Shown here in pieces: positions 1 to 9,524 of a stretch of DNA of 37,544 nt. Source of the DNA: Aquificaceae bacterium. Lineage in GTDB: Bacteria > Aquificota > Aquificia > Aquificales > Aquificaceae. Numbering within the stretch: position 1 is the stretch's first letter; the number at the start of each line of letters is the position of its first letter. The stretch covers positions 2,581 to 40,124 of the forward strand of contig JAXSMZ010000011.1 in assembly GCA_037924335.1 (NCBI GenBank). The letters run 5' to 3'. The position numbers were made by a program, and so were the translations under genes. The notes beneath the pieces were generated by a model. The model had not been told where the DNA came from. It did not search any database and worked only from the letters and a program-made list of their open reading frames with translations.

Positions 1-59
1 ACTTAAAAAACGAGGCTGAACATTGGAGCAGAGAGGCAAGCAAGTTAGGTTTCAAACCC

Positions 60-209
60 TTATAGGAACTTAAAAAACGGCTGTGGGAAAGGTGCTTGTA
101 TGGACTTAGAAGCGAGTAAGGAGTTTATATAGTCATCTGCGTATTCTAAGTCTTCTTCTACAACTGCTATTCTTTCTTTTATGTCCGCAAGCTGTGCGTA
201 GTAAGCCAT
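60..209 (-). pseudogene. 3'-truncated ORF, possibly a phage head-tail adaptor (Mu gp36/DUF1320-like N-terminus)
   Basis: Translated by hand: MAYYAQLADIKERIAVVEEDLEYADDYINSLLASKSIQAPFPQP. It then runs into the repeat and stops at TAA 62-60. The MxY..xD...A..YIxxxL....xP..P pattern resembles phage adaptor proteins. Confidence 0.5.
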
Positions 210-256
210 AAGTGTATTATGTGTCTTTACCTACTACGCTTTTGGAAAGTTTTCTA

Positions 257-574
257 TTAGTAGCACTTAACTTCTCTCAGTTGTGCTTCCAGATTTGTTA
301 CATCCGTGTTGACCGTCCCAATTGCAACAAAATCTCTTCTTTCTCTGTTTGCCACATATCTTAGATGTGCTATTGCGTCTCCAACTGTTTGCCCTGATCT
401 GCGTTTTATGAGAAAGTTGATAAACAAGTCCTTGCATTCCTTCCCGCTGTTGTTTTCTACTCTACCCTTGACATTAACAGAAGAGCCAAAGACGCCCACT
501 GACTCCACTCTTACGTCAAACTGTGCGAAGGCTACGGATACAAGCATAAGGCTTGCGATGGCTATGTTTTTCAT
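257..574 (-). CDS. Secreted small beta-sandwich protein, FxLYD-domain-like
   Basis: Signal peptide ending AFA. Pattern V.G.V.N.S.K...L.INF....G..VG.A...L......R.F. Strong RBS AAGGAGG 7 nt upstream and a double stop TAA TAG. Confidence 0.85.
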   Translation of the reverse strand: MKNIAIASLMLVSVAFAQFDVRVESVGVFGSSVNVKGRVENNSGKECKDLFINFLIKRRSGQTVGDAIAHLRYVANRERRDFVAIGTVNTDVTNLEAQLREVKCY

Positions 575-586
575 GGCGCTACCTCC

Positions 587-1015
587 TTACAAGTTTTTTA
601 ACTCCGCAGGCTTATAAACAGCCACAACCCTGCCTATTATTTTACAATCTGAATAAAGCTCTGGTGCATAGTTAGGGTTATCCGCAAAAGCCCACCACTG
701 CCCGCTTATATGTCTTAGTCTTCTTATCTTTATGCCGTTGTCCCCGCAGGCTATAAGGTAAACCGCATTGTCATATAGCTCTGTGTCTTGTCTATCAATT
801 AGCACGTATTCGTCTTCTCGAACAGTTGGCATCATGCTGTCTCCAACGACCTTAAAAGCCTCCACTTTGTAGTGTTTTAGCCTACTCCTTTCTACAAGCA
901 CATGATCTGGTGTGTATCTTACGCCCGCTCCTGCCTCTGTGATAACTGGTATTGCTACAAGCTCTGTAGGAATTAGCTCCTCTTTGGGAAGAAACATCTC
1001 CCCAGTGCCGTATTT
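587..1015 (-). pseudogene. C-terminal peptidase S24 domain of a CI/LexA-like phage repressor, HTH missing
   Basis: AGAG cleavage site, V.GDSM.P motif, ADNPNY and IIGRVV. The frame is open up to the repeat boundary (KYGTGEMFLP, the usual post-HTH linker) and the repeat supplies an in-frame TGA upstream. Confidence 0.88.
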
Positions 1016-1446
1016 GTTTCAAACCCTTATAGGAACTTAAAAAACTTCCAGTCCGCCCAATCATCATCGGAGACCTGAAGTTTCAAACCCTTATAGGAAC
1101 TTAAAAAACCATTTACCACATCCTCGGGTCTGAAAACCTTCAGCTCGTTTCAAACCCTTATAGGAACTTAAAAAACGTTGTGCTTTATGTGTTTTTACCA
1201 AACAATTCAAGTAGTTTCAAACCCTTATAGGAACTTAAAAAACGAATAGTAGAAAGAAAAATCTTTAGAACGTCTAATAACGTTTCAAACCCTTATAGGA
1301 ACTTAAAAAACCTATTTATGTTTACTCTTGCGAAAACCCTTTCCTCCTGTTTCAAACCCTTATAGGAACTTAAAAAACTTTAAGCTCAATATTGCGATAC
1401 TCATCAAGCATACGCTGTTTCAAACCCTTATAGGAACTTAAAAAAC

Positions 1447-1608
1447 CTACCTTTACGTATTCAGTTGCCAAGAACGCGCTGGGCTTGGTATACCCAGTTT
1501 TTCCTTCACTACACATTATTATAATACAGATTCACCCGGCTAAGCTATTTATCTGTCTACCTAGAATCTTGCAGAAAGCGTGGGGGATCCACAGAAAGTA
1601 AGATAGTC
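1447..1608 (-). promoter_or_regulatory. CRISPR leader
   Basis: Non-coding region between the last repeat and the cas2 stop. Minus-strand TATAAT at 1523-1518. Degenerate TCTGTCTACC...GGATCCACAGA inverted pair resembling I-B leader motifs. Confidence 0.8.
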
Positions 1609-1875
1609 CTATATTATAAAATCCTCATGAGACGGACGTTCTGTCCCAATGCTCTGCCTTTGGTAATACTGCTTGGTTCTAAACTTGTATATGAGGACAG
1701 AGTCGTAATTGAGATCAAGAACATCCTCTAATTCTTTTATGAGCTTGAGAAGTTTAGCTTCAGTTAGTTCACCTTCAAAAACTGAGTTTTGCACCCTAGT
1801 TAGATATTTCCTGCATACCTTTAGTGCCTTTCCAACTCTATCCTCTCTTACATCATAGACAAGTATCACAAACAT
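1609..1875 (-). CDS. cas2: CRISPR-associated endoribonuclease Cas2
   Basis: N-terminal VILVYDV, VQNSVFEG motif, 88 aa. Confidence 0.97.
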   Translation of the reverse strand: MFVILVYDVREDRVGKALKVCRKYLTRVQNSVFEGELTEAKLLKLIKELEDVLDLNYDSVLIYKFRTKQYYQRQSIGTERPSHEDFII

Positions 1876-1885
1876 GACTGTAGCC

Positions 1886-2872
1886 TTACCAATTGCTTAT
1901 GAAAGGTTTGTAAGGTTTCTCATCAAGAAGGTGTTTATAAAGCTTATAACACTCTATTCTTATGACACGTCTATATGAAACTTTCCCTACGTTTTTATAC
2001 CTAATCGTGGTTCTAAGTTTTTCTTCAAAAGCGTTAATAAATATCTCTCTCCCTTTTTGATTCAGATAAGCATAATTTACATCCTGTTCAAAGTGCTTGT
2101 TCTGTATCTGACCTTTATTCACAAGAGAAAATATTATTCTGTCCACTATTATAGGCTTGAAAACCTCTGCTATATCCAGATTAAGGCTAAAACTTCGCTG
2201 ATTGGTTTCGTGTAGGAATCCTATCCTCGGGTCAAGATGAGTTTTATAAATTTCACTTAAGACTACCACGTAAAGAAGTGAGTTGCCAAAGGAAAGCATG
2301 GCATTTATAGGATTCATTGGTGGACGTATGGATCGCTTTTCAAATTTGAAACCTTCTAGAAATAGGTCAAAGGCAGAATAGTAAATCTTTCTTATCTCTC
2401 CCTCTAGTTCCATAAGTGACGGTATTGATTTTTCTTTGTCTATATACTTTATAAGGTTCTCTATAGAGACTATAGCATCTTTTAACTGAGAGGTCTTACT
2501 CCTTCTATAGTAATCAAGGTTGCGAAGTATATTATTAGCCCCTCCATAAACGAAAGATTTTGCTAAGTATAGTCGTTTCTCCATATCTAAGTAGTGTTCA
2601 ACTTGCTTTAGTGTTATAATCCCAGAGTTTGTTACTTCTCTTGGATAAAAACTACCCATATAGAAACCGTAGTAATTGAAAAAATGTAGCGGTATACCGT
2701 GTTGATTGAGAAACTCAAGTGCTCTCTTGTTAAGTTCCAATTCACCAAAGACCATCAATTCGCTGACCGCATTAACGGGTATTGCCCTACTACCACTTGA
2801 AGTTGAGAAAAAGAGAGTGTTATCCTTCCTCTCCAGAGTCCCAGAAGTGAACAAATAAAGGGTTCTTTTCAT
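1886..2872 (-). CDS. cas1: CRISPR-associated endonuclease Cas1, type I-B
   Basis: KDNTL, ELEG..R..YY, NAMLSFGN, GFLHE, LDIAEVFKP motifs. Start placed at the MKRTLY ATG after the cas4 stop. Confidence 0.97.
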   Translation of the reverse strand: MKRTLYLFTSGTLERKDNTLFFSTSSGSRAIPVNAVSELMVFGELELNKRALEFLNQHGIPLHFFNYYGFYMGSFYPREVTNSGIITLKQVEHYLDMEKRLYLAKSFVYGGANNILRNLDYYRRSKTSQLKDAIVSIENLIKYIDKEKSIPSLMELEGEIRKIYYSAFDLFLEGFKFEKRSIRPPMNPINAMLSFGNSLLYVVVLSEIYKTHLDPRIGFLHETNQRSFSLNLDIAEVFKPIIVDRIIFSLVNKGQIQNKHFEQDVNYAYLNQKGREIFINAFEEKLRTTIRYKNVGKVSYRRVIRIECYKLYKHLLDEKPYKPFISNW

Positions 2873-2874
2873 GC

Positions 2875-3357
2875 CTAGCACATTTCCTTGTAGGCACAGT
2901 TTCTGCAGTAGAAAATTTTAACAGGTTCTGGAGGTCTTGAAAGGGATATTATGTGTTCTATTCTTCTGAGTATATTTTCAATTTCTCTCTCGTTTTCAGG
3001 AGTAAGCTCAATATTTATAATTCTTTTCTCCGTTGGTACAAGGATCTGACCGACTGCTACAACACCTTTTTCTTTCTTTAGATAGTAAAGGTAATAAAGT
3101 AGTTGTGCCCTTGCACCATCTAAGTTTTTACTACTAGCTTTTACTTCTGCTACCATTCCCTTGCGTTTGACAACGTCTACCTTAATCACACTATCTATGA
3201 GCATCTCCTTTGTATACCTTTCGTAGAATAGCTCGTGAATTGTTCTACCGTATTCAAGCCTTTCGTGTTCTTGAAAAGGTTCAATAGAGTGACCTATAAG
3301 CCACACCTGCCTTTCGCATATTTGGCTATACCAAATCATAGTTCCGTTTATTACCAT
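2875..3357 (-). CDS. cas4: CRISPR-associated exonuclease Cas4
   Basis: C.RQ.W, G..IHE, D...EVK, QL.YY and C-terminal C..C.Y...C Fe-S ligands. Confidence 0.96.
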   Translation of the reverse strand: MVINGTMIWYSQICERQVWLIGHSIEPFQEHERLEYGRTIHELFYERYTKEMLIDSVIKVDVVKRKGMVAEVKASSKNLDGARAQLLYYLYYLKKEKGVVAVGQILVPTEKRIINIELTPENEREIENILRRIEHIISLSRPPEPVKIFYCRNCAYKEMC

Positions 3358-5561
3358 ATCTGCTCATTAAGTTTTCCAGTGAAACCCACTTCCTCGTTAT
3401 ATAATTCTGAACCCGTAACATATATTTTTAACAGTGGGTCTTTCTGTGTGCCTTCTGGCTTTGCGTTTATCACATAGGAGTAAAAAGTGCCCTTTATAGC
3501 TTCAAATTCTCTTTTTGCCTCAAATATGTTCATTTCCCTGTCTTTTAATCTATCTGCTATGTTTCTTGCTTTTTCCAAAATTTCCCGAGCTTTATCGTCT
3601 ACACATACGAACACACTTTCTTTGTATGGTTCATCGTCTATTAAAGTAAAGTCTCTCATGCTATGGAAATTGCATTTTTGGATATGCTTGAGAAGTTCAT
3701 TACTTTCCTCTTGATAAATTCTTTGTTTGATGTCTGAGAAGTATTTTTCAAGTTCCTGCAAGAGTTGGCTCTCTGTGATTTGAGATTTGTTCTTGAGAAA
3801 ATCTTCCGTTGCAGAAAGGAGTATAATATCATATACACTTCTGGCATACTTTCCGTCGTCAAGTCTTATTACAAACACTTTTCCACCTTGTTGACTTTTG
3901 GCGTTTCTGTTAGCTCTGCCTGCTGTCTGGACTATACTATCAAGAGGTGCAAAGTCTCTTATGACCACATCAAAATCAAGGTCTACACCCGCCTCTATAA
4001 GCTGTGTGGATACAACTATCTTGTGTTTACCATCTGCTATTTCTCTTATCCTATACGCCCTGTGAACTGGAACGAGCATGGTAGAAAGATGAACCACACT
4101 AGGAAAATACTTCTTTAGCTCACTGTAAACTTCTCTTGCGGAGGCTATAGTGTTTAGAACTATCAAGTATCGCTTGTCTTGCTCGTATAAATCTTTAAAA
4201 AAGTTCACAAGTGCGTCAAGGGAGTTCACATCAAACCTCACCTCGAGGTTATATCTGTTGACGGATAATCTGAAGTGGTTTACATCTACAATTTCCCATG
4301 AGCTAGGAGTAAAGTATGGCTGAGTTGCGGTCATATACAAGACTTTACAGCTTAGTTCTTGAGTAAGAACTTCTATAGCCTTTCCTACGAGATCCCAGTA
4401 CCTAACAGGCAGTGCTTGAACTTCATCAAGGATTATGAAAGAGTTTCTTAGTCTATCTAATCTCCTTATGTAAGGGTTCTGCCAGGGGAAAATGGTATGG
4501 AAAAGTTGATAGAAAGTGGTAAGTATTATAGGAGCTCTCCAGCCTTCAACTAAAACTCTGAAAAGGTTATGGTCTTCTTCAGAATTCTCTGTGGGATATT
4601 CGGTAAGATGGTGGTGGACTACAAAGTCCTGACCTATCTTAAGCCCAAGCCTTTCTAAGTTTAAACGAACCTGTTCTATGACACTTAGAAAGGGAAGTGC
4701 ATATATTATCCTCGCAGGTTCGTGCTTAAGAGCAAAAGAAAGACCTGTTAGTGTCTTCCCCATGCCAGTAGGCAAGGTCAAAGTAAAAACTCTCCCTTGT
4801 GCTTCACTTGAGAAAACATGCCTGTATGCCTCATCCCTTAACTGCTTTAAAGGAGACTGTAGGTTCTTTGTGTATTCTTCTATGCTATCTGGAGAGAGCG
4901 GAAGGGGCAATTCTTCCAGAACACCTCTCAAGGCTGCGGAGGATTTGTCTGTATCTAAAAGTAGAGAAAACTCTGAAAGCCTACCCCAGAAGTAACCATC
5001 AGGGAAAGAAACAAAAAGAAATCTCTTTTTCATTCTATCAAATAAAGGTTTTCCAGAATTTTTTACCCACTTGAAGAAGTCATTAAGGTCAAAAAGCAGC
5101 TTCTCTTTTAGTTGATCTTCTATATCAAGGAAATCCACGAAGTGTTTGAATTGTTGATAGTCTATGCTTCTGGCTTTTTTAAGCTCTTTTTCTATCTCTC
5201 CCGAATTGAAAAGTCCATTTATACGATCTATATAGTACAAAAGATAATAGCCATGCCCGTCCCAGAAAAGGTCTGAATGATGTCTTTCTACATAAAAGAA
5301 ACTCCAAAAGCAGTCTTCATCCTTCAACTTAAATCTTTCCTTGCATACATAGAGAGTATAAAATGCTGAAAGAAGAGCGTGGGTTGTACGTTTCCCACCA
5401 TTAAGATAGTCTTGAAATTCCTTTGTTGCCTTTCCCATATCATGAAGAACCATCGCAAGAAGAAGATGGAGTGGGATGTCTTGCTTACTTTTCTTAGCAA
5501 TTCTTAGTATACGGTTTACATGGTCATGCATACATACATCAGGATGAGAATAGATACACAT
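3351..5561 (-). CDS. cas3: CRISPR-associated helicase/nuclease Cas3
   Basis: N-terminal HD domain (LHDMGK, HH), LPTGMGKT Walker A, DEVQ, TAT, TQLIEAGVD and QTAGRANR. Confidence 0.97.
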   Translation of the reverse strand: MCIYSHPDVCMHDHVNRILRIAKKSKQDIPLHLLLAMVLHDMGKATKEFQDYLNGGKRTTHALLSAFYTLYVCKERFKLKDEDCFWSFFYVERHHSDLFWDGHGYYLLYYIDRINGLFNSGEIEKELKKARSIDYQQFKHFVDFLDIEDQLKEKLLFDLNDFFKWVKNSGKPLFDRMKKRFLFVSFPDGYFWGRLSEFSLLLDTDKSSAALRGVLEELPLPLSPDSIEEYTKNLQSPLKQLRDEAYRHVFSSEAQGRVFTLTLPTGMGKTLTGLSFALKHEPARIIYALPFLSVIEQVRLNLERLGLKIGQDFVVHHHLTEYPTENSEEDHNLFRVLVEGWRAPIILTTFYQLFHTIFPWQNPYIRRLDRLRNSFIILDEVQALPVRYWDLVGKAIEVLTQELSCKVLYMTATQPYFTPSSWEIVDVNHFRLSVNRYNLEVRFDVNSLDALVNFFKDLYEQDKRYLIVLNTIASAREVYSELKKYFPSVVHLSTMLVPVHRAYRIREIADGKHKIVVSTQLIEAGVDLDFDVVIRDFAPLDSIVQTAGRANRNAKSQQGGKVFVIRLDDGKYARSVYDIILLSATEDFLKNKSQITESQLLQELEKYFSDIKQRIYQEESNELLKHIQKCNFHSMRDFTLIDDEPYKESVFVCVDDKAREILEKARNIADRLKDREMNIFEAKREFEAIKGTFYSYVINAKPEGTQKDPLLKIYVTGSELYNEEVGFTGKLNEQIW

Positions 5562-6213
5562 AGTCTACTCCTACCTTATATATGTTTATAAACTCACCAC
5601 TTAAAGGGTTATCTTTCGTTGTGTAGAAAATATCTATATAGCTGGGGCTTTTTCTGCCTTCCTGAAAGCTAATTGGTATTCTATCTTTGAAAACTGGTCT
5701 TTGCTTTAAGACTTCTATTAGATTAGAGGTGCAATCAGGAGGGAAAACTCCATAGATACAGTCTGATTTTCCCACAAATACAGCTTGTTGAAACCCGATA
5801 GGTTCAAGTCGGGCAGGGTAGGAGGTTTTTCCAAGGTATGGATGGTAATGGCTTTTGCCTTCCTGAACCATATCAGCAAATGTCTCAAACAGATCACCTT
5901 GACCACATAGGTGTATTCTGTAAGAGGGATTAATGAGAACTTGTCTGTTTGCTTGTGTGCGGACGAGTTTTTTAGGGTCTTTAATATTTAGAAGGTTTAA
6001 GCCTAAAAACATCTTTCCTTCCACCCTCTCTATCACGATACCTATATTAAATTCGCTTGTAGTCTTTATGTAATCCTCACAGCCTACTACAGCGGCGATA
6101 AGCCCCCTTATAGTTGTCGGTGGTGGAAAATCATAACTTAGGGCGGACGCAGTTGTGTAAAACTTTCTAAAGTGTCCAAGCCTTCCACTAAGCCTAAAAG
6201 AAAAGCACTTCAT
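5539..6213 (-). CDS. cas5: Cas5, type I-B
   Basis: GHFRK, SY.FPPPTT.RG, PYLG motifs and operon position. Confidence 0.95.
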   Translation of the reverse strand: MKCFSFRLSGRLGHFRKFYTTASALSYDFPPPTTIRGLIAAVVGCEDYIKTTSEFNIGIVIERVEGKMFLGLNLLNIKDPKKLVRTQANRQVLINPSYRIHLCGQGDLFETFADMVQEGKSHYHPYLGKTSYPARLEPIGFQQAVFVGKSDCIYGVFPPDCTSNLIEVLKQRPVFKDRIPISFQEGRKSPSYIDIFYTTKDNPLSGEFINIYKVGVDYVYLFSS

Positions 6214-7184
6214 TTTGTCAGATTAAACTTCTCAAGGGGCAAACCTTGAAAAGTATTCTCTAAAGGCTCTGATAGTCGTAACATAGGGTCAATCTGATAT
6301 ATCACCTTCTGTATATCTCTCTTAACCCCTTCAAGCTTATTTTTCATTGCAGAAAGGTCAAGGATAAACTCAGAAACATTCCTTATAGCTTTTTCCTCAA
6401 GCCCTTCGTCAGGAATGAGTTTAATGAAACTTATAAGGTCCCCAAGAGAGTATAGAGTGTTTTCTTGAAAAACAATGTCAATCAGAAGTTTAGGTGAATG
6501 TCCAAGCTTACTGGTGGTTTCAATAGTACTTGCACTCATATGCCCATACCACAAGGCTTTAAAGAAAAGTTCTATATCCTTTTCACTTAAGCCAGTTTTC
6601 GTTGCATTCTTGTCATTCACTACCCCATAAGTCCCTATGAAAGCGTAAGGCACTTTGTATTCTTCTGTGAAAGTCCCCACAGTCTTGCCTTCACCAGATG
6701 GCATCTCAGTAGTCCCTTTGATAAAAACCACATCCACTTTATGAAGAGACTCTCCCCATGCAATCTGCACAGGTCCCACAAAAGAAAAGGCTTTTTGTTC
6801 TTCTTTTGACTCTTCTGTATTCCCTGAACCTTTCTTCTTCTCTTTACCTCCCACCGCAAAGACACCACCAAAAAGTCGTATGTCCACGTACTTTTCCAAC
6901 ACGTACTTTTCCAACGGCATTTTAGGATCACCAATTTCTTTGCCAATTTCTTTTAACTTCTCATCCTTGGTTTTGAGGGTGCCATCTTCGTTTTGTTCTG
7001 CCTTTATGAATACTTGATGACCAAACTGCTCTAAGGCATCCCTCACCGTCCTCTTTATCCTATCGTCGGACACAAGAATTCTCTCTCTTATCTTATCTTG
7101 TCTTGGTTGGTTGTCCGCTAAAGGGTCTCCATTAGGATTTGCCCACCTAACATCGTAAAAAAAGAAAAATTCATGTCTCTTCAT
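6210..7184 (-). CDS. cas7: Cas7/Csh2, type I-B
   Basis: ANPNGDP..DN.PR, DIRLFG and GPVQ motifs. GGAGG upstream of ATG 7184. Confidence 0.96.
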   Translation of the reverse strand: MKRHEFFFFYDVRWANPNGDPLADNQPRQDKIRERILVSDDRIKRTVRDALEQFGHQVFIKAEQNEDGTLKTKDEKLKEIGKEIGDPKMPLEKYVLEKYVDIRLFGGVFAVGGKEKKKGSGNTEESKEEQKAFSFVGPVQIAWGESLHKVDVVFIKGTTEMPSGEGKTVGTFTEEYKVPYAFIGTYGVVNDKNATKTGLSEKDIELFFKALWYGHMSASTIETTSKLGHSPKLLIDIVFQENTLYSLGDLISFIKLIPDEGLEEKAIRNVSEFILDLSAMKNKLEGVKRDIQKVIYQIDPMLRLSEPLENTFQGLPLEKFNLTK

Positions 7185-7572
7185 CTTGCTCACCTCCAGA
7201 CTTAAGATTCTTACCTATTCCATAGCCGACACAAAGGGCAGTGTTTATGTCATCTCTCTTTTTCCCTCTACCCTCAAACCCCAGTCTTTTTATAGCCTTA
7301 GCATACAGGGTATAGAATTTTTCACCAAGATTGTATTTAGTAGCCTTGTTCATTAGCTCTCTCATTAACTCTTCTACCCCACGCCAATCAAGGCTAAACT
7401 CCCTAAAAAGAAGGTAAAGGTTGGGTGTGTATCCTTTTGCGTATTGAACCTTTTCCACATAAGCGACAAGAAAGCCCAAAAGGGCAAGTCCTACAAGAAC
7501 TTCGTCCTCTTTAAAGTATTTTCTAAAAAAGTCCTCAGGATTTTCTTCTTCTAACTTGTTAAACTCTGCCAT
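7171..7572 (-). CDS. cas11: Putative Cas11 small subunit translated from an internal start in cas8b (133 aa)
   Basis: In-frame ATG at 7572 preceded by GGAGG at 8-nt spacing. Helical C-terminal region. Confidence 0.65.
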   Translation of the reverse strand: MAEFNKLEEENPEDFFRKYFKEDEVLVGLALLGFLVAYVEKVQYAKGYTPNLYLLFREFSLDWRGVEELMRELMNKATKYNLGEKFYTLYAKAIKRLGFEGRGKKRDDINTALCVGYGIGKNLKSGGEQDEET

Positions 7573-8799
7573 GTTCTTTCCCTCCATAGCTTTTTTTATG
7601 AAAAGATATGAAACAACAAAATCATAGCATAAATATTTAAGATTATTGTTCTGGATTTTTCTAAACCCAGAAAGCAATATGCCTGATGGTTCTACTTTTT
7701 CCCCAAGAAAACTTGCCCTCAAGAGAGCAAAAAAACTATCTCTATCTGGTGTTAGTCTCCGTATGGTTTTGTATGAAAACTTTTCCCCAAGCGTGAATTT
7801 CTCTTCTATTTCTCTTTTCAGTTTATAAAGATAACCAAGTCTTGATGGAAATATGTCTTCAATTGAGTGAAGTATTCTTATAGCATTTTGATTTCTCTCT
7901 AAATAAAGAAGCAATACACGAAGATCATCCTCAATCCCAGATTTTTCTCTAATATATTCATTAATGTCTTCAGGATCTATATTCCCAGCTCCTAAATATG
8001 ACTTTCTTGATGTATCGTCTTTGAGAACTTCCACCAGCTCTTCTATCTTCTGCACGTTCCCTTCTGGAATAAAAAGATATTCAAAGCCCGCCATGCTGAA
8101 TTTAAACCATAGACCTGCAGCCTCAACTCCTTTCTTAACAGTTTCAAGGCAATCTGCACATGCAGGCATATGTCTGTAAGCAAGCCCTTTATCAATGTAA
8201 GGAGCATAAGCAGGGTTGTCAACCGTATAAACAGTAATGGGGAAATAATCTCCTATTACTTTCTTTTTTTGAAAGCATAGAGAACATATTCCTTCTCCTC
8301 CTTTTCTTTCTTTCTCATACCACCTTCTGATAAGATTTTCTACCTTTTCCACTACCTCTTGTATCTCACCCAAATATTTATCGTCTATTTTTATAGTAAT
8401 CAAAATCTGGTGTGCTTTATTTAAGTCTTTTACCTTCATCTTTAGGTCCTCTTTGATTTCGTCCATACTACCCTCAAGGGGCTTTCCAAACAACTGCTCT
8501 GCTGATGAGAATAGCCATTCTAGTGTTTTAGGTTTCTTCTCAGATAGCTCCTTTTTTAGCTTATCCTTTGCTTTAACTATGGTAGGCGTAAAGCCAGGGG
8601 TATTCTTTGAATTCCCCCTTTTCGCATATAGGTATTTCCATTGTTCCTCATTTTTGAAATCTTCCAGCCTAAGATCTATATAGTTTAGGTTCTTGCCGAA
8701 ACGTAAAGTAAAAACTATATCAATACCACTTAATAAGTCCCTTGCTCTTAAACCCTTATTCTCAGCTACTTTTCCAAGATCTAGAAAAGCCCTCAACAT
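7171..8799 (-). CDS. cas8b: Cas8b/Csh1 large subunit (TM1802-like)
   Basis: Two CxxC pairs (CSLC, CADC), I.DIFPSR motif, position between cas6 and cas7. Confidence 0.9.
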   Translation of the reverse strand: MLRAFLDLGKVAENKGLRARDLLSGIDIVFTLRFGKNLNYIDLRLEDFKNEEQWKYLYAKRGNSKNTPGFTPTIVKAKDKLKKELSEKKPKTLEWLFSSAEQLFGKPLEGSMDEIKEDLKMKVKDLNKAHQILITIKIDDKYLGEIQEVVEKVENLIRRWYEKERKGGEGICSLCFQKKKVIGDYFPITVYTVDNPAYAPYIDKGLAYRHMPACADCLETVKKGVEAAGLWFKFSMAGFEYLFIPEGNVQKIEELVEVLKDDTSRKSYLGAGNIDPEDINEYIREKSGIEDDLRVLLLYLERNQNAIRILHSIEDIFPSRLGYLYKLKREIEEKFTLGEKFSYKTIRRLTPDRDSFFALLRASFLGEKVEPSGILLSGFRKIQNNNLKYLCYDFVVSYLFIKKAMEGKNMAEFNKLEEENPEDFFRKYFKEDEVLVGLALLGFLVAYVEKVQYAKGYTPNLYLLFREFSLDWRGVEELMRELMNKATKYNLGEKFYTLYAKAIKRLGFEGRGKKRDDINTALCVGYGIGKNLKSGGEQDEET

Positions 8800-9524
8800 G
8801 GTTCAACCATCCCAAAGCCTGCACTGTTTTTTACACCAAGTCCTGCGTAAAGAGCTATGCACATCATGTCCTCCCCTGTTCTTATATTATACGTTCCCTC
8901 CCAGGCTTCTACAAGTGTTCCCTTAAAAACAACCTTCTTTCTGTAGCTATTTTCTATCTTGACAGGACTTATCTCTATCCCACCCTCATACTTTTTTCCA
9001 TACACTAGGTGATATTTCTTCAAAAGGTTGGACTTAAGGAGCTTATAAAAATCCTCTTGATAGGGTGTGAAGTATTCAAACCTTTTACTGCCAGCTGGAG
9101 TCCTGTAAACAGTTATAGGAGATAGACATCGCACAGAGACCTCTTTTTGAGGATTGTATTCTCTTGCGTGTATTTGCGAGAGGAAAACGTAGTTACTTCC
9201 AAGCTTTAGGCTCTGTTTTTTTAGAACTTCCTTTAATAAACTCTCGGTGAGTTTAAGAAAGGGGGAGGCAAAATGTATAACAAGAGGTGGTATAAGCTTT
9301 AAAATATCGCCCCTTTTTTCTAGTGAACTGTATCCAATTTTTGAGAAGGTAAAAAGCTTAAATTTCCTTCCTTCATATATGAATCCAGACTGGTGCAGAA
9401 ATTCTGAGAGAAGCCTGTCTATGTTCGCATAGAAAAACCCTTGAAGCACATGATTGTATGACTTTGGAAGAATAACCGGTCTGTCAGAGTCCAAAGTCAA
9501 CGTAAGAACTGCTCCCTTTCTCAT
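8793..9524 (-). CDS. cas6: CRISPR-associated endoribonuclease Cas6
   Basis: FKLFTFS, LSPI and C-terminal G-rich loop GLGVKNSAGFG. Confidence 0.97.
   Translation of the reverse strand: MRKGAVLTLTLDSDRPVILPKSYNHVLQGFFYANIDRLLSEFLHQSGFIYEGRKFKLFTFSKIGYSSLEKRGDILKLIPPLVIHFASPFLKLTESLLKEVLKKQSLKLGSNYVFLSQIHAREYNPQKEVSVRCLSPITVYRTPAGSKRFEYFTPYQEDFYKLLKSNLLKKYHLVYGKKYEGGIEISPVKIENSYRKKVVFKGTLVEAWEGTYNIRTGEDMMCIALYAGLGVKNSAGFGMVEPC

Follow-up and report, generated by a model that had tools for sequence, protein, structure and literature searches.

The window analysed here is a 37,544-nt stretch of an Aquificaceae assembly (G000:C11:2581-40124, G000 being the source genome) that begins straight after a 10-N scaffold gap. 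At its start lies a CRISPR array whose crRNA strand is the minus strand and in which a 30-nt repeat occurs in eight perfect copies (49-78, 1016-1045 and then every 64-68 nt up to 1446). Seven spacers in the window measure 34-38 nt; one, at 79-1015, is 937 nt long—about 25 times a normal spacer and outside the 34-38 nt unit length—and full repeats form both of its borders, exact to the base. Leader and array adjoin a full type I-B set (cas6, cas8b, cas7b, cas5b, cas3, cas4, cas1b and cas2; Table 1). Its Cas7, Cas5 and Cas1 products exceeded type I-B profile cut-offs, and Cas8b scored above the Pfam TM1802 cut-off but below those of NCBIfam. Cas4, likewise above its profile cut-off, has four cysteines and the nuclease motifs in place and, judged from its sequence, looks intact. 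The exact 30-nt repeat was absent from the 89 family genomes and the GTDB contigs searched, and promoter and terminator predictions across the array region gave no more than chance level. Sequencing runs with contigs matching the window came from hot-spring samples; by this and by the Hydrogenobacter name of one repressor relative, the host is probably a thermophile of the Aquificales.

Table 1 Features of the array, the insert and the cas operon, in positions of the window. X1 and X2 are sequencing runs; G106 is a genome of another genus.
Feature	Position	Strand	Remark
Partial repeat	1..11	-	Adjoins the 10-N scaffold gap G000:C11:2571-2580
Ordinary 37-nt spacer, leader-distal neighbour of the insert	12..48	-	No protospacer match
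Perfect 30-nt type I-B repeat, leader-distal border of the insert	49..78	-	Joined to the insert in X2 record 8
937-nt over-long spacer (insert), collinear piece of a Mu-like temperate phage	79..1015	-	
Putative former spacer B (last 38 nt of the insert)	79..116	-	Within the head-tail adaptor gene
TTA, likely PAM of the system	117..119	-	Directly 5′ of the last 38 nt
5′ part of head-tail adaptor gene (phrog_195), truncated by the repeat	79..209	-	114 aa in G106
Intact 105-aa gene, variable cargo slot behind the repressor	257..574	-	Ribosome-binding site, hydrophobic N-terminus, FxLYD domain
3′ part (S24 domain) of CI-like repressor, without the HTH part	587..1015	-	
Putative former spacer A (first 37 nt of the insert)	979..1015	-	Phage triplet 5′ of it is CTA in 4/4 relatives
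Perfect repeat, leader-proximal border of the insert	1016..1045	-	Bridged by X1 record 4
Six ordinary spacers (34-38 nt) and six repeats	1046..1446	-	1110-1146 and 1177-1213 match the Mu-like phage family of the insert
Leader	1447..1608 (about)	-	Assigned from its place between cas2 and the first repeat
Type I-B operon cas6, cas8b, cas7, cas5, cas3, cas4, cas1, cas2	1609..9524	-	All open

Gene content and phage source of the insert

Both ends of the insert fall within conserved phage genes, the repressor on the leader side and the adaptor, of which the first 131 nt are inside, on the other. The slot between them held a different hydrophobic protein in every phage relative examined. The same order of repressor, cargo slot and adaptor is found in G106:C56, where the copy is itself a long spacer, and other relatives carry different genes behind the cargo slot. 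Full-length relatives of the repressor share 90-95% identity, one of them bearing a Hydrogenobacter name. Logan contigs, the longest of 9,078 nt, encode variants of the 105-aa protein at 97% and 94%; as far as these matches go, they are in keeping with a phage origin. The protein has no relatives outside its own cluster, and the protein Atlas returned only unnamed clusters; its location behind the repressor and its hydrophobic N-terminus are the two features by which it may be a candidate for an exclusion role.

With respect to the phage itself, the relatives encode cro-like and CII-like proteins, a Bet/RecT annealing protein, a transposase and a transposition ATPase, and on these grounds we class them as Mu-like and temperate. 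The predicted Bet/RecT protein matched its profile with an E value of 1.9e-39 in one relative (L002), and homologous open reading frames occur in further ones. In the Mu-like prophages L060, L065 and L002 the Bet/RecT gene lies beside the immunity region, upstream of the transposase, and the repressor lies mid-genome; neither IMG/VR nor INPHARED held close relatives of these three.

No second copy of the insert exists in the source genome. However, the end of its contig C8 (C8:52371-52467) is a prophage end with 97-98% identity to two relatives, and C21:1-2350 carries head genes of the same phage family that join host genes in mid-phage. These two parts represent a partly assembled or partly deleted prophage, implying that a donor of the insert's family is or was present in the host. 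The exact source phage did not surface: IMG/VR gave no match to the 105-aa gene, the S24 part or the repressor alignment and a single weak one to the adaptor, the 105-aa gene was unmatched in JGI metagenomes, GTDB contigs yielded only distant matches, INPHARED and PLSDB none, and there was no DNA match across 60 relatives.

Contig support for the insert

A first-pass annotation of this DNA had proposed that the insert arose by recombination, or else by mis-assembly, between two spacers and their phage protospacers. In the second case, the assembler would have passed from one spacer (A, at the leader-proximal end) via a co-occurring phage or prophage to another (B, at the opposite end). Several features of the material would suit such a chimera: it predicts a PAM at both ends, the array stops at a scaffold gap, and the host has an unassembled prophage of the insert's family. 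Contigs of four out of 20 runs (X1, X2, X4 and X5) were compared with window positions 1-1700; runs X7-X20 hold small shares.

Contigs of two runs crossed the junctions unbranched, which speaks against a mis-assembly. On the left, X2 record 8 spans 50-662 with 0 differences at a depth of 17.3 (k=31 contigs), comparable to records of ordinary spacers (13.6-18) and the leader contig (19.7) in that run. On the right, X1 record 4 spans 494-1046, again with 0 differences, at a depth of 4.47 as against 5.8 for the cas2 contig, and three X1 records tile 78-1046 at depths of 2.2-5.8. X4 and X5, from a second study, contain interior parts of the insert without differences and neither junction. Contig depth is no measure of copy number in any of these comparisons.

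This support has its limits. Each junction was observed in one run only, the right one being absent from the X2 contigs; X1 is shallow; and either X1 or X2 may be the source sample. X2 record 8 has just 29 letters on the repeat side, below the 31-letter rule, but ordinary spacer contigs of 92-97 nt likewise have 29. The G106 assembly, which holds the comparable case, is also fragmented, and its long spacer is known from the assembly alone. On the other side, a chimera requires an identical phage path running on beyond 79 and beyond 1015, and none was present among the matches listed, the two junction contigs being unbroken there. Nor does the abundant free phage in X2 (depth 94-109) provide such a path: it is a different allele, with 27 differences in 633-1011 and other DNA than the insert behind the repressor stop. 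Taken with the lack of a second copy in G000, the insert looks to be real DNA in the array, and we regard a mis-assembly as improbable.

By bin depth, spacers 12-48 and 1046-1079 were uncovered in X2 and the left part of the insert and five other spacers were covered, suggesting array variants to coexist.

Insert ends, PAM and further over-long pieces

As the first-pass annotation had noticed, TTA (119-117) does precede the terminal 38 nt of the insert (116-79), an ordinary spacer length, when the minus strand is read. Among terminal lengths of 33-40 nt, TTA precedes only this one. Within the phage adaptor gene this triplet encodes Leu, and the G106 relative has it as well. That a 3-nt match is weak evidence by itself was borne out: across 177,526 positions of related prophage DNA, TTA precedes the terminal 34-38 nt of an arbitrary end in 9.4% of cases and the terminal 37-38 nt in 3.8%. 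It weighs more because TTA is independently supported as the PAM of the system.

This independent support comes from protospacers of the other spacers, four of seven of which had matches. Two of the four, 1379-1416 (in two phage variants) and 1177-1213 (at 7 mismatches), showed a TTA flank, in line with the earlier suggestion; the other two did not. Flanks for spacer 1110-1146 were TTG (2 mismatches), CTT (4), GGT (7) and CTT (10), the TTG and CTT triplets being Leu codons, so that the actual source may have had TTA, and the flank for 1046-1079 was ACA. One additional TTA flank, at 7 mismatches, came from a related repeat family, and spacers 12-48, 1244-1281 and 1312-1348 gave no protospacers. 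On the best reading of these few, imperfect matches, TTA is the likeliest PAM.

At the opposite end, the triplet 5′ of the insert is CTA in all four relatives (L002, L009, L025 and the X2 phage), which are relatives of the source and not the source itself. The chance of TTA or CTA at a single site is 3.3%. In the type I-B system of Parageobacillus, the accessible text of PMC10551041 gives TTA as the best PAM and CTA as about 100-fold worse. At end B, a mosaic was not significant (3/38 versus 2/94 mismatches, p 0.14). We also rejected the idea that the insert spans a whole number of array units: with one repeat it amounts to 14.5 units, and the G106 spacer to 20.2.

The insert is not the only over-long piece. 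On the far side of the scaffold gap, between it and the terminal repeat, C11:2425-2570 (L001:1267-1412) is a second one of at least 146 nt, with 74% identity to an Arc-like gene at the end of a Mu-like prophage in G017. It has no TTA 34-38 nt from its end—AAT, CAA, TCA, CTC and CCT precede its last 34-38 nt, with TCA at 36—and its junction was not among the run-contig matches listed. In X2, a loose end at window position 1015 leads from the repeat into other DNA, of which there are at least 255 nt. The final 30 nt of this DNA, which were the letters compared, match the phage CII-like gene in three relatives with 5-7 mismatches, where the 5′ flanks are TTA, CTA and TTG; in L002 the match and the insert start share a strand, the match lying about 830 nt further upstream. 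This piece may be a third long spacer or else a longer version of the 937-nt insert.

The closest parallel comes from another genus. In G106, a 1,323-nt spacer (L057:8738-10060, in G106:C56) lies among 37-nt spacers of another repeat family and covers the phage region of our insert: the repressor end, an intact 199-aa cargo gene, the whole adaptor gene and 78 nt more. On a 32-kb phage, two inserts would overlap by chance in about 7% of cases. The PAM of this array is CCN, as given by the best match of each spacer with matches at no more than 4 mismatches (6/8), and an additional X1 spacer of the CCN family matches 705-740 behind CCG. The G106 insert is flanked on its 5′ side by CCA, CCA and CCG in three relatives and has CCN before its last 35, 36 and 37 nt, for which the chance is 11.9-18.5%. 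No identical copy of the 1,323-nt spacer was found elsewhere in G106. A G017 spacer (L248, G017:C1:1615536-1615573) matches the G106 cargo gene with 0 mismatches behind CCG, so this cargo exists or existed as free phage DNA.

A survey of long spacers, covering arrays in the fetched regions only, retained 2 long N-free gaps against 179 and 125 ordinary spacers. Gaps in L072 and L075 were dropped as N-filled, the same gaps reading as 100 and 132 nt, and so was a 444-nt gap in G045, which had no phage match and a leader-like reading. In the complete genome G026, an 836-nt non-phage piece (L179:4750-5585) sits between two CRISPR repeats and contains a whole 255-aa outer-membrane-like gene; PAM signatures were absent at modal lengths. 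In G086 (L254), the same gene occurs at 93% without repeats; there the start of the G026 piece falls 7 nt behind a promoter match (TTGACA-17-TATAGT) and its end at the terminator hairpin, and the piece thus corresponds to a whole predicted transcript. No reverse transcriptase (PF00078) turned up in any of five genomes searched, and none was found in G026.

Possible routes of phage DNA into the array

Spacer length is thought to be set by an integrase ruler, and kilobase spacers are usually discarded as artefacts. In the present case, contigs support the insert at each of its junctions, and an unrelated array that uses another PAM also has a piece of this phage region. Either phage genes can be drawn into the chromosome with spacers as homology arms, or kilobase DNA can be integrated by Cas4-Cas1-Cas2.

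Our leading reading, which we rate at just short of an even chance, is a double crossover between the array, with two spacers, and the Mu-like phage, helped by the phage's Bet/RecT protein. In the ancestral array there would have been two spacers against the same phage strand: B (116-79), with TTA as its PAM, and A (1015 to about 979), newer and closer to the leader, with the weak PAM CTA and a target about 860 nt upstream. Such a layout could result from priming by spacer B. The phage recombinase would then have annealed to both spacers a stretch of phage DNA reaching from A to B, which may have been a single strand remaining after Cas3 action, and this stretch would have taken the place of the repeat or repeats between them. 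The product would be a single 937-nt spacer in which an intact phage cargo gene runs in the direction of array transcription and of which probably no more than the first ~37 nt could serve as a guide.

In favour of the double crossover, the insert is collinear phage DNA placed exactly between perfect repeats, the phage family has Bet/RecT, and TTA lies 38 nt from the 3′ end. The G106 insert, with PAM signatures at both ends, amounts to a replicate in another genus, repeat family and PAM. Recombination of spacers with phages by phage recombinases, which the first-pass annotation had called documented, is stated as such in bioRxiv 10.1101/2020.10.09.333658 and PMC8616872. In the accessible parts of both papers, it takes the form of transduction and not of a retained double crossover. 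The comparison with spacer-protospacer recombination (Varble et al. 2019, as cited in these two sources) is thus close in one respect, short spacer homology and a phage recombinase joining array and phage DNA, and distant in another: there the CRISPR locus is transduced, whereas here a kilobase of phage would have been retained in a chromosomal array.

Other observations count against it. The 5′ flank is CTA, the weak variant, and C11:2425-2570 has no 3′ TTA. A pair of crossovers, each confined to ~37 nt, should seldom happen, and still as many as four such inserts were observed. Stand-alone versions of A or B, which the first-pass annotation had suggested looking for in reads and sister genomes, did not turn up. 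For the four runs, 31 pieces (of 48) and 17 loose ends (of 19) were listed; neither 79-116 nor ~979-1015 stood on its own in any of them, no joint was listed, and none of 125 spacers of related arrays matched the insert within 10 mismatches. This search had little power, the exact repeat being found in no other genome, and a recombinant may have swept. The idea of two former spacers is partly supported, by the TTA, the collinear phage piece, Bet/RecT and the G106 replicate; the missing stand-alone ends, the CTA flank and the TTA-less second piece lend it no support.

PAM-like 5′ flanks in all three testable inserts suggest 5′ ends to be made by Cas proteins, acting either on the long piece itself or on an earlier spacer. 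The 3′ PAM pattern, seen in two of three phage-derived inserts of which one is the discovery case (leaving one of two independent tests, at a chance of 20-26%), favours without proving routes in which both ends are spacer-like. One such route has no need of earlier spacers. Cas4-Cas1-Cas2 at the TTA (119-117) would trim and integrate the non-PAM end 38 nt away, the PAM side would keep ~900 nt of phage DNA, and the far end, cut at a second PAM (CTA), would complete the integration. This would produce the two-PAM pattern and account for the absence of stand-alone A or B, and it is consistent with the PAM-like 5′ flanks of all three inserts. For type I-C, bioRxiv 10.1101/2022.05.30.494039 describes integration that begins with the non-PAM end, the PAM being cleaved only later. 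That work concerns type I-C and not I-B, the step with two complexes is our own extension of it, two-ended integration was nowhere demonstrated in the literature consulted, and C11:2425-2570 again lacks the 3′ TTA. We consider this route unlikely.

Alternatively, the PAM may define the 5′ end only, with an arbitrary 3′ end and a TTA at 119-117 that is there by chance, as is expected at 9.4% of ends. Such a simple over-long acquisition would explain the recurrence, with a second piece of at least 146 nt in the array and a probable third one, 255 nt or longer, in X2, as well as the G026 piece between repeats, with its lack of PAM signatures at modal lengths; an 899-bp fragment in Sulfolobus offers a precedent. 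Against it, both the TTA in the window and the CCN in G106 must then be chance, the other spacers keep to 34-38 nt, and Cas4 appears intact as far as its sequence tells. We hold it to be slightly less likely still. Both forms of over-long Cas4-Cas1-Cas2 acquisition taken together are a real but doubtful possibility. Recombination remains the best reading, yet it is so far inseparable from over-long acquisition.

A further option is that a prophage entered the array, by Mu-type transposition or by integration at a repeat, and was later deleted down to the insert. The phage is transposable, given its transposase and transposition ATPase, and PhiAP1.1 is a known example of a prophage that integrates into repeats (bioRxiv 10.1101/2020.10.09.333658). 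In that case, as described there, phage DNA likewise lies within an array, but as a whole prophage at an att site in a repeat, in contrast to the internal fragment between intact repeats seen here. Both ends of the insert meet perfect repeats to the base and lie inside phage genes, far from the phage termini; the relatives show no repeat homology at these ends, and neither termini nor att sites were found at the borders. The exact repeat borders largely refute a prophage remnant, which we deem highly improbable; explanations other than those named here seem barely probable.

Among the nearest known systems is CRISPR locus F of Sulfolobus solfataricus, in which a pNOB8-like plasmid fragment of 899 bp lies between two repeats (PMC4390879). 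In both cases, some 0.9 kb of a mobile element separates two repeats in an array that is ordinary in other respects. According to the accessible text, however, the Sulfolobus fragment has the length of about 13 repeats plus 14 spacers and its locus is leaderless and inactive, whereas our insert amounts to 14.5 units and comes with a leader and a full type I-B operon; the fragment there is plasmid-like, the insert here stems from a temperate phage and has a parallel in another genus. Canonical type I-B adaptation, as described for Parageobacillus in PMC10551041, shares the full operon, the PAM-like 5′ triplet, the exact repeat borders and a likely preference for TTA. The insert differs from canonical Cas4-Cas1-Cas2 adaptation in being 25 times the normal spacer length and in its 5′ flank, the weak CTA in relatives. 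Our searches, made mostly without subscription papers, yielded no account of kilobase phage spacers that recur and are bounded by PAMs in complete type I systems. The accessible parts of PMC8860600, PMC6546412 and bioRxiv 10.1101/2024.03.22.586370 contain nothing on kilobase spacers, and those of PMC5821089 brought nothing further.

Either route would give arrays a role in gene uptake, and recombination would let an array acquire a whole phage gene. We raise, as a speculation that probably does not hold, that arrays of these thermophiles could serve as landing pads for phage gene modules: spacers to conserved genes flanking a variable cargo slot would guide recombination, and the cargo gene would be moved in and transcribed from the leader. 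Arrays of two genera would then have taken up this slot, each with another cargo gene that is intact and co-oriented, so that the captures may be selected, for example as a domesticated superinfection-exclusion gene.

Within window 701-740, a spacer of another array family in run X1 targets 705-740 behind a CCG PAM, and the abundant X2 phage differs at 701 and 702, which alters this PAM.
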